Under the pieces are notes generated by a model. That model saw only the letters and a program-made list of their open reading frames with translations, was not told the origin of the DNA and ran no database searches. Positions 27,501 through 28,635 of a DNA stretch of 64,000 bases are shown one piece after another (positions within the stretch are counted from its first letter, which is position 1; the number at the start of each line of letters is the position of its first letter). The position numbers and the translations under genes were made by a program. This stretch comes from Planctomycetia bacterium (GTDB taxonomy: Bacteria; Planctomycetota; MHYJ01; WSZJ01), in contig JADLHC010000114.1 of assembly GCA_020849035.1 (NCBI GenBank), positions 4,923-68,922 of the forward strand. The letters run 5' to 3'.

Positions 27501-28423
27501 CCGCCCTTCCCCGCTACAAGCCCCAGATCAGCATCCCGGCGCTCCTGGACCGCATGCCGATCCTGCGGCTGGAGGGCGTGGCGAAGACGTTCGGGGGGGT
27601 GGAGGCGGTGAAGCCCGTGGACGGGACGGTGTGCGAGGGGGAGATCACGGCGCTGATCGGGCCGAACGGCGCGGGGAAGACGACGCTTTTCAACATGATC
27701 AGCGGGCTGATCCCGCCGACGGTGGGGCGGGTGGTGTACTACGCGAGGTCGGGGCCTGCGAACCTGTCGAGGCTGGCGCCGCACGCGATCTGCGGGCTGG
27801 GGCTGGCGCGGACGTTCCAGAACATCCGGCTGTTCGGGGACCTGCCGGCGCTGGACAACGTGAAGGTCGGGTGCCACTCGAGGACGCGGGCGGGGCTGCT
27901 GGGGGCGATCCTGCCGGTGAAGGCCTCGAAGCGGGAGGAGGAGGAGATCTCGGCGGCGGCGTACCAGTACCTGGCGTTCGTGGGGCTGGCGGACCGGGCG
28001 CACGAGCAGGCGTCGAGCCTGTCGTACGGGGAGCAGCGGCTGCTGGAGATCGCACGCGCGCTGGCGAGCCAGCCGCGGCTGCTTCTGCTGGACGAACCTG
28101 CGGCAGGGATGAACCCGAAGGAGAAGGGCGCGCTGGTGGTGTTGATCCGGCGGATCAGGGAGACGGGGATCACGGTGTTCCTGATCGAGCACCACATGAA
28201 GCTGGTGATGGAGATCAGCGACCGGATCCTGGTGCTGGATCACGGCGAGAAGATCGCGGACGGGCCGCCTGCGGCGGTTCGGGCGGACCCGAAGGTGATC
28301 GAGGCGTACCTTGGGAGCGAGGCGGCGCACGACGGCGGGGAAACGGCGGCTGCTGCCGCTCCGGAGGAGCCGAAGAAGGACGGCGGGCTGGCGGGGGACT
28401 TGGACAAGGCGCTGCCGGAGTAG
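27497..28423 (+). CDS. livG: Branched-chain amino acid ABC transporter ATPase LivG
   Basis: ORF 27497..28423, ATGA overlap with livM. Walker [10 protein letters not shown], signature [10 protein letters not shown], Walker [11 protein letters not shown]. Ala/Glu-rich C-terminal tail. Confidence 0.93.
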
Positions 28424-28635
28424 GCAGTGGGCAGTAGGCAGTGGGCAGTAGGCAGTGGGCAGTGGGCAGTAGGCAGTGGGCAGTGGGCAGTGGGCAGTAG
28501 GCAGTGGGCAGTGGGCAGTGGGCAGTGGGCAGCAGGCAGTGGGCAGCAGGCAGTGGGCGGGAGGCAGAGTCCGAGATCCCTGCCAACCGCCCCCTGCCCA
28601 CTGTCAACTGCCCACTGCCCACTACCCACTGCGGC
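28421..28635. repeat. Tandem heptamer array: 21 x T(G/A)GGCAG, 12-nt spacer, 8 x CTGCCCA (inverted)
   Basis: Counted unit by unit. 12 TGGGCAG, 5 TAGGCAG, 2 CAGGCAG, TGGGCGG and GAGGCAG span 28421-28567. Complementary units span 28580-28635. The first unit contains the livG TAG stop. Confidence 0.95.

Follow-up and report, generated by a model that had tools for sequence, protein, structure and literature searches.

An inverted heptanucleotide array between livG and livF of a planctomycete and its relation to the G-rich heptamer repeats of other bacteria

Described heptamer repeats and the livG–livF element

Cyanobacterial short tandemly repeated repetitive (STRR) heptanucleotides were reportedly described by Mazel and colleagues in 1990 as STRR1 (CCCCAGT), STRR2 (TTGGTCA), and STRR3 (CAACAGT). 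Rehm et al. (2015; PMC4692102) subsequently reported G-rich heptamers in 2 to 26 copies, namely GGGAATC in Xanthomonas and GGGGAYT (STRR1) in Nostoc, and cited three Calothrix heptanucleotides. Here, we analyzed a 64,000-nt stretch of planctomycete DNA (hereafter, the window; 70.5% GC; all positions are window coordinates) taken from a metagenome-assembled genome (MAG), with a focus on a 215-nt element of inverted heptamers (28421 to 28635) that lies between the ABC-transporter ATPase genes livG and livF. By its sequence, this element belongs to the class described for Xanthomonas GGGAATC and Nostoc GGGGAYT. We consider it, at a probability of roughly 60%, to be a hypervariable simple-sequence repeat whose heptanucleotide arrays form a convergent inverted pair, prone to slippage, tolerated in the spacer, and of small, incidental effect.

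[quoted passage not shown] An earlier reading of the window from its letters alone (the sequence-only reading) held that inverted heptamer blocks were undescribed in high-GC genomes outside cyanobacteria; these Xanthomonas pairs, with the same proximity to the stop codon, contradict that view. G-quadruplex (G4) formation in vitro was found for oligonucleotides carrying the Xanthomonas and Nostoc units, most of the arrays are transcribed, and no regulatory role or function was identified for the heptamers (PMC4692102).

The livG–livF element shares with these repeats tandem 7-nt units of the form G3+N4, a copy number (21) that falls within 2–26, a spacer between aligned ORFs, proximity to the stop codon, and a sequence capable of forming G4, and with the Xanthomonas repeats it also shares convergent inverted pairing and a high-GC, non-cyanobacterial host. 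It differs in its unit, which is GGGCAGT rather than GGGNATC or GGGGAYT, whereas the window as a whole differs in its planctomycete host, in holding several unit families within 64 kb, in the position of this element inside an ABC-transporter operon, and in that G4 is known here as a sequence motif. With respect to variation in copy number and sequence, the livG–livF spacer differs in seven relatives at 69–83% LivG identity, which are not same-species genomes. So far as its letters can tell, the element conforms to the published G-rich heptamer class in every tested respect but the unit word.

According to the summary of Mrazek (2007) given in PMC4679880, heptanucleotides are the most abundant class of long simple-sequence repeats in most genomes, with polymerase slippage proposed. 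MacGregor (2015; PMC4679880) reported TAACTGA direct repeats common to three phyla, in Beggiatoaceae, Cyanobacteria, and Bacteroidetes, which often abut the start codon and for which horizontal spread or a common binding protein was proposed, not demonstrated. They resemble the class of the livG–livF element in that one heptamer word occurs in intergenic DNA of distant phyla, but they are AT-rich, mostly direct, and present in 2–6 copies, with a single inverted case and a proposed translational role, whereas the livG–livF element is a long inverted pair that follows a stop codon. In Nostoc PCC 7120, TTTTGAA/TTCAAAA heptamers occur upstream of start codons (preprint 10.1101/2022.06.06.494920). 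A GAATTTT array in the window (35533–35573) has the identical circular unit and likewise lies just upstream of a start codon, here in a host of 70% GC. The cyanobacterial STRRs resemble the window arrays as tandem heptanucleotides of non-coding DNA with multiple unit families and inverted arrays able to form helices; however, they come from a different phylum, and ACTGCCC, the complement of the livG–livF unit, is no STRR unit. The repetitive extragenic palindromic (REP) sequences and bacterial interspersed mosaic elements of enterobacteria, for example the intercistronic REP between malE and malF, are dispersed palindromes of ~35 nt that can stabilize upstream mRNA and are mobilized by REP-associated tyrosine transposases (RAYTs). 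The livG–livF element resembles them as an intercistronic hairpin in an ABC-transporter operon, for which we propose co-transcription, and differs in that REP palindromes are not built of tandem units and that no RAYT was seen among the window genes.

Anatomy, relatives, and predicted fold of the livG–livF element

The livG gene occupies 27497 to 28423 on the (+) strand (NCBIfam LivG, E = 9.5e-78), and repeat unit 1 opens with the TAG stop codon of the gene (28421–28423). The LivG sequence is 100% identical to that of a database protein assigned to a Planctomycetia MAG. Read in register from this codon, the left, G-rich arm comprises 21 heptamers (28421 to 28567, [+] strand), 17 of which match T[GA]GGCAG exactly, while the loop-proximal units are degenerate and the last five, next to the loop, read CAGGCAG, TGGGCAG, CAGGCAG, TGGGCGG, and GAGGCAG. 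Tandem Repeats Finder (TRF) placed this arm at 28419–28558 (period 7, 20.0 copies, score 217). A 12-nt loop, AGTCCGAGATCC (28568–28579), leads into the right, C-rich arm (28580 to 28635), which consists of eight degenerate CTGCCCA units, three of them exact and the others one to three bases off (TRF: 28580–28632, period 7, 7.6 copies, unit CTGCCCA). In circular register, the unit word is GGGCAGT (complement, ACTGCCC), and this unit family was seen by TRF only once in the window. The 26 nt between the right arm and the livF start contain a Shine–Dalgarno (SD) sequence, GGAGAGG (28652–28658), which is not part of the main stem and has homologous counterparts at the spacer ends in two relatives (L039 and L003). 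The livF gene (28662 to 29366, [+] strand; NCBIfam LivF, E = 6.2e-83, profile positions 5–236 of 237) begins with a TTG at 28662, in alignment with the positions where livF starts in relatives. At the other two liv junctions the genes overlap, through GTGA between livH and livM (26115–26118) and through ATGA between livM and livG (27497–27500).

The array described by the sequence-only reading is thus confirmed, including its start at the livG stop codon, the livF start, and the overlapping junctions elsewhere in the operon, while the interpretation attached to it is partly supported. The 21 uninterrupted T(G/A)GGCAG units, as well as the 12-nt spacer followed by eight CTGCCCA units, stand in number and register but not as exact copies of the unit. 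Between successive TAGGCAG units (28421–28540), the runs of TGGGCAG number 1, 1, 2, 3, and 4, an ordered growth that is hard to obtain from simple single-unit slippage. A mechanical ORF list stretches the livF frame upstream into the array (GTG 28476); we rejected the idea of a repeat protein on the grounds of the period of 7.

The junction was compared at the syntenic loci of seven relatives (LivG identity, 69–83%), as had been suggested for sister genomes, and its content differs in all seven. The genes overlap at TGATG in L044–L046. The junction measures 25 nt in L039, where it begins TGAGCAGGGGG and has GCAG after the stop codon as in the window, 30 nt in L003, 76 nt in L042, and 87 nt in L002, which carries a hexamer array, (GGGCAA)6. 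In L001 and L040, it measures 158–165 nt and holds a mutually orthologous, A/C-first hairpin (z-scores of −6.4 and −9.6) whose sequence is unrelated to that of the window. The LivG C-terminus (...DKALPE*) and stop position are conserved in L003 and L039, and the SD–TTG end of the spacer is conserved in relatives. The element of the window therefore occupies exactly the interval from the ancestral stop codon to the ribosome-binding site and is specific to this lineage.

The sense RNA of the element is predicted to form a long hairpin (−148.9 kcal/mol, z = −5.8), as is the RNA of the opposite strand (z = −6.5); with DNA parameters, the minimum free energy is −65.7 kcal/mol. In the predicted fold, the right arm pairs with the loop-proximal units of the left arm, with the variant units TGGGCGG and CCGCCCC in register across the arms, and ~13 G-rich left-arm units stay unpaired. 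An in silico regex search found a single canonical G4 motif (G3N4 ×4), GGGCAGTGGGCAGTGGGCAGTGGG, inside the left arm (28506 to 28529, [+] strand), so that, by sequence, the element carries the G3+ tract over four or more units. The Rfam scan of the window gave no match at the element; the sole match to reach the gathering score was a tRNA gene at 47840–47913.

Under the simple-sequence-repeat explanation, the array would have arisen in the lineage of the window inside a formerly short livG–livF spacer, exactly where the ancestral stop codon gives way to the ribosome-binding site of livF, and its arms would have changed length independently by slipped-strand mispairing, giving 21 versus 8 units and the nested TGGGCAG runs. 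Co-transcribed with the operon, the eight right-arm units may pair with the loop-proximal left units in a stem of ~55 bp and leave ~13 G-rich units as a 5′ tail with the G4 motif; because the livF SD and TTG lie outside the stem, translation of livF would merely be uncoupled from that of livG. Its persistence may reflect a position and orientation tolerated or favored class-wide, with the G-rich sense strand straight after the stop codon, rather than a need of the liv operon. Any influence on expression is probably slight and incidental, since livF has its own SD outside the stem, no U-tract follows the stem, and relatives do without the element; a structural barrier or a transcript processing site comparable to an intercistronic REP hairpin would be the likely extent. 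The anatomy, the predicted fold, the absence from relatives, and the class-wide polarity described below are the part of this explanation that is shown here.

The sequence-only reading had instead suggested that the ratio of LivG to LivF could be set by a dedicated element of variable length, acting either as an attenuator or on RNA stability. Although the predicted stem within the operon is very stable, livG–livF is the only non-overlapping junction among livHMGF, and several relatives also carry some insert there, we regard this role as quite improbable. No U-tract follows the stem, where the sequence reads CTGGAACGCG, and a terminator scan gave no site in 28400–28660, though it detected the livJ terminator at 24632–24662; on this evidence, the element is not an intrinsic terminator. 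A LIV-I type ABC importer contains both LivG and LivF as its ATPase subunits, and an unequal ratio of the two is not expected. Furthermore, outgroup genes overlap, two close relatives run the operon with spacers of 25–30 nt, the inserts of other relatives show no relationship in sequence, unit length, or arm order, and the same element type occurs in unrelated spacers of the window and in unrelated contigs. The lineage-specific content of the junction thus supports no conserved liv-specific regulator.

As the source is a MAG, the copy numbers of the array are approximate. In L001, runs of N (scaffold gaps) occur at 5684–5693 in the gatC–livJ spacer, where they are flanked by G-rich and C-rich repeat arms, and at 11784–11793 in the livF–msrB spacer, which indicates that such elements break short-read assemblies and that copy numbers in MAGs are only approximate. 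These gaps inside comparable repeat hairpins, the MAG source of the window, and the length of the array (147 nt, about one read) are what could be said for an artifact of short-read metagenome assembly, yet such an origin is hardly credible. The unit variants of the array follow an irregular, non-periodic order (the TGGGCAG runs given above), which is evidence against a collapsed assembly loop; the junctions with conserved livG and livF sequence are exact; and the architecture recurs at other window loci and in hundreds of independent assemblies, including MAGs tagged "ont" (nanopore; L006 and L034). A junction-specific 20-mer (the livG end plus the first two units) had no matches among the metagenome contigs.

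The GGGCAGT family in metagenomes

A scan of metagenome contigs with four perfect copies of GGGCAGT returned at least 120 unrelated contigs (L047–L166). The (GGGCAGT)n-loop-(ACTGCCC)m architecture is therefore widespread, and the standing of the element of the window as the "flagship" of its family is not supported. Among the matches listed, to which the counts for this family in this section refer, the flanking GC ranged from 0.34 to 0.74, the copy number reached 38 with a median of 6, and no homology to the window was found outside the arrays, so these are not orthologous liv loci. The loops of the copies are unrelated in length and sequence. Unequal arms are usual in the pairs (at least 25 versus 5, 4 versus 14, and 9 versus 19 units), which makes slippage, as had been suggested, a reasonable source of the 21 versus 8 units in the window.

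The paired arrays display a strict polarity, with the C-rich partner located downstream in 37 and upstream in none. A G-strand ORF of at least 100 codons ends between −40 and +25 nt from the array start in 59 of 106 arrays, with 30 of these 59 ends falling in the bin just before the array and TAG serving as the stop codon in 34 of the 59; in comparison, an ORF end occurs at the opposite end of the array in 17 of 97. Single arrays follow the same trend, as the order of stop codon then G-array was found in 37 of 74 and that of stop codon then C-array in 11 of 69. A single transition separates TAG from the TGG present in each GGGCAGT unit. Two further ideas were rejected. Polar growth, in which arrays would be purer at their ORF-proximal end, was not borne out (26 versus 33 arrays; Wilcoxon p = 0.46). 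A universal G-first rule holds at 37:0 in the GGGCAGT family and mostly (22:6) in a mixed set but fails in the planctomycete relatives, whose hairpins are C/A-first.

This polarity would suit a class-wide function at the 3′ end of genes, in which the G-rich array after the stop codon acts as an RNA G4 or hairpin that blocks 3′–5′ exonucleases, as an R-loop or DNA G4 that pauses RNA polymerase, or, with the G arm first, as a means of sequestering the C-rich arm from Rho loading; the argument from Rho avoidance is one that we infer ourselves. The counts for single arrays (37/74 versus 11/69) and pairs (37 versus 0) favor such a function, as do the G3N4 ×4 motif in the livG–livF element and the finding that Xanthomonas and Nostoc oligonucleotides form G4 in vitro and that most of those arrays are transcribed (PMC4692102). 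However, we hold it to be doubtful: the hairpins of the planctomycete relatives are mostly C/A-arm first, the livG–livF element has only one canonical G4 motif, the window arrays of GTGGTTN and GGCGAGT carry only GG tracts, and Rehm et al. found no regulatory role (PMC4692102). Moreover, a comparison of sense and antisense stability and of G·U counts gave no consistent bias, with two of the four window elements each way, and thus no advantage of the sense strand.

Arrays elsewhere in the window and in the spacers of relatives

A census of periods 4–12 over the whole window revealed period-7 runs at five loci (3174–3315, 24674–24695, 28419–28632, 35533–35573, and 44996–45091) and no runs at periods 8–12, and all five lie in non-coding spacers. 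A chance origin of the period-7 arrays is excluded by this census, and the earlier claim of an STRR-like heptamer family with several loci in the window is supported. All five arrays also lie between co-directional genes: hypothetical gene to pgm, livJ to livH, livG to livF, rnhB to M19 dipeptidase, and topA to bioD. In the inverted arrays, the G-rich arm of the sense strand begins 0–3 nt past the upstream stop codon, with the exception of the livJ case, which follows a conserved terminator-like hairpin.

The recurrences that had been noted at 3177, 24663, and 44996 are real inverted heptamer pairs (fold z = −5.0 to −8.0). The first, a predicted hairpin of GGCGAGT and CCACTCG units (3174 to 3317, [−] strand; TRF, Pfam; fold z = −6.6), lies between a hypothetical gene and that of phosphoglucomutase, both on the (−) strand, with the sense G arm ~2 nt past the upstream stop codon. 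The second, of TGGTTKG and CCAACCA units (24662 to 24754, [+] strand; TRF; fold z = −8.0), occupies the livJ–livH spacer directly after the livJ terminator-like hairpin (24632–24662). The third, of GGTTAGT and ACCACTG units (44996 to 45091, [−] strand; TRF, Pfam; fold z = −5.0), fills the spacer between the (−)-strand genes topA and bioD, with 2 nt left between the end of its C/A-rich arm and the bioD ATG that follows. The remaining locus is a one-armed, AT-rich array of 5.9 GAATTTT copies (35533 to 35573, [+] strand; TRF, Pfam; fold z = +0.1, unstructured) in the rnhB–M19 dipeptidase spacer, 27 nt upstream of the dipeptidase ATG; its circular unit (TTTTGAA) was also observed in a Vicinamibacterales MAG (L024, 2057–2084). 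A common RGTGG core had been proposed for these units, and AGTGG is indeed common to three of the four unit families (AGTGGCG, AGTGGTT, and AGTGGGC). However, the GAATTTT array lacks it, and the chance of such sharing among random heptamers, ~0.025, is nominal and post hoc.

The elements at 24662 and 44996 have in common a stretch of ~26 nt, GTGGTTCGTGGTTGGTAGT[GA]ACGGCG, that runs past the array into the loop (alignment of regions 24655–24765 and 44990–45105), pointing to copying from one locus to the other rather than to slippage at each independently. An exact 19-mer common to both, ACTACCAACCACGAACCAC (compared with window regions 24725–24754 and 45060–45091), was found at 35 loci in ~25 genomes among GTDB representatives (L004–L038), against a chance expectation estimated at ~4. 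These loci span at least nine phyla and a GC of 38–70%, and their hosts include Acidobacteriota, Gemmatimonadota, Cyanobacteria, Bacteroidales, Myxococcales, Chloroflexia, Bacillota, Omnitrophota, Krumholzibacteriia, and a gammaproteobacterium. Every match falls inside an array of SAACYAC heptamers, most with an inverted GTRGTTS arm, and we interpret SAACYAC/GTRGTTS as a heptamer family that crosses phyla; to our knowledge, no such family has been described. In viral or prophage contigs of IMG/VR (L167–L219), four copies of GGGCAGT were found at 9 loci and 3.5 copies of GTGGTTS at 44.

The L001 and L040 relatives hold a dispersed family of A/C-arm-first hairpins (AACTTCA.../...TGAAGTT, with a conserved TTTCAAGCAAAC) at L001 10916–11073, L001 19375–19535, and L040 1501–1665; one copy occupies the livG–livF spacer, and compensatory changes affect eight pairs among the three copies. 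Together with the ~26-nt stretch and the occurrence of the same unit families in viral contigs, these copies could be taken to mean that the livG–livF element is a REP- or miniature inverted-repeat transposable element (MITE)-like mobile hairpin inserted into the spacer, with its tandem look due to a family built of GT[AG]G heptamers. GT[AG]G, the head motif of REPs, which are imperfect palindromes of ~20–40 nt, is present in every unit of the element, whose arms are 56–147 nt of tandem units. We nevertheless deem this origin unlikely. The element has no target-site duplication at its borders and no terminal sequence distinct from the array, and its unit occurs once only in the window, so it does not qualify as a MITE; no Y1 transposase (RAYT) or other transposase was seen among the ~40 genes of the window. 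Moreover, the unrelated loops of the metagenome copies speak against a mobile hairpin, and arm copy numbers vary continuously, as those of simple-sequence repeats should.

Several results weigh against the simple-sequence-repeat explanation preferred here. Neutral slippage alone would hardly yield the strict G-first polarity, the abutment of stop codons, and the identical units in unrelated genomes of 34–74% GC. These features point to a class-wide selective or mechanistic factor, while the stretch common to the 24662 and 44996 elements and the two L001 copies of one hairpin family imply that copying or mobility, rather than growth in situ, may generate new loci. In addition, the comparison at the RNA level was uninformative, the sense strand being more stable than the antisense in only two of the four elements. 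Since neutral slippage explains neither the polarity nor the recurrence of words across phyla, a 3′-end RNA function, Rho avoidance, and a mobile or protein-directed origin keep a lower but non-trivial weight.

A bolder and rather unlikely view is that the livG–livF element is one case of an unrecognized cross-phylum system, in which a heptamer vocabulary (GGGCAGT, GTGGTTN, TTTTGAA, TAACTGA, GGGGACT, and others) is made or kept by common machinery that imposes a fixed polarity. Candidates for this machinery would be a word-specific nucleic-acid-binding protein, a nuclease or transposase, or a process coupled to transcription or translation. Such a polarity, in which the G-rich sense strand borders the stop codon and pairs begin with the G arm, would then extend over genomes of 34–74% GC and their resident phage DNA, and the arrays would be functional 3′-end or intercistronic modules rather than the debris of slippage. 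The single locus is of little weight in itself; with it, Planctomycetota and the word GGGCAGT join a repeat class recognized from 1990 onward in cyanobacteria and from 2007–2015 onward in other bacteria. The question that this class poses is sharpened, and made testable in existing genome collections, by the 37 of 37 G-first pairs, the abutment of stop codons, the words found across phyla and viral contigs, and the spacers that keep a hairpin while its sequence is replaced. For annotation, such arrays flag places where MAG assembly and gene starts are unreliable.

Orthologous spacers illustrate this replacement. In the rnhB–M19 dipeptidase spacer, the window has GAATTTT units, L001 has ATTGGAT-type units in inverted arrangement, L002 has inverted CCTTTC/GGGAAA hexamers, and L003 has a non-tandem hairpin with a stem of ~50 bp. 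Across the rnhB–M19, livJ–livH, and gatC–livJ spacers of the window, L001, L002, and L003, a long hairpin or array is kept at ~80% protein identity, whereas its sequence, unit length (6 nt, 7 nt, or non-tandem), and arm order are replaced, which indicates that structure-prone repeats recur at fixed positions while their sequence is swapped. In contrast, L044 and L045 (69% identity; labeled Candidatus Brocadiae) have no period-7 array in 15–18 kb of syntenic sequence, and their genes abut or overlap; richness in heptamer arrays thus differs sharply between related lineages.

Upstream of livJ, a sigma-70-like promoter (TTGTCC-18-TATAGT, 23410–23439) is conserved in relatives, as is the 13-bp terminator-like hairpin just after livJ (24632–24662). 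Together, these putative signals would fit a binding protein that is expressed more strongly than the permease and ATPase genes.

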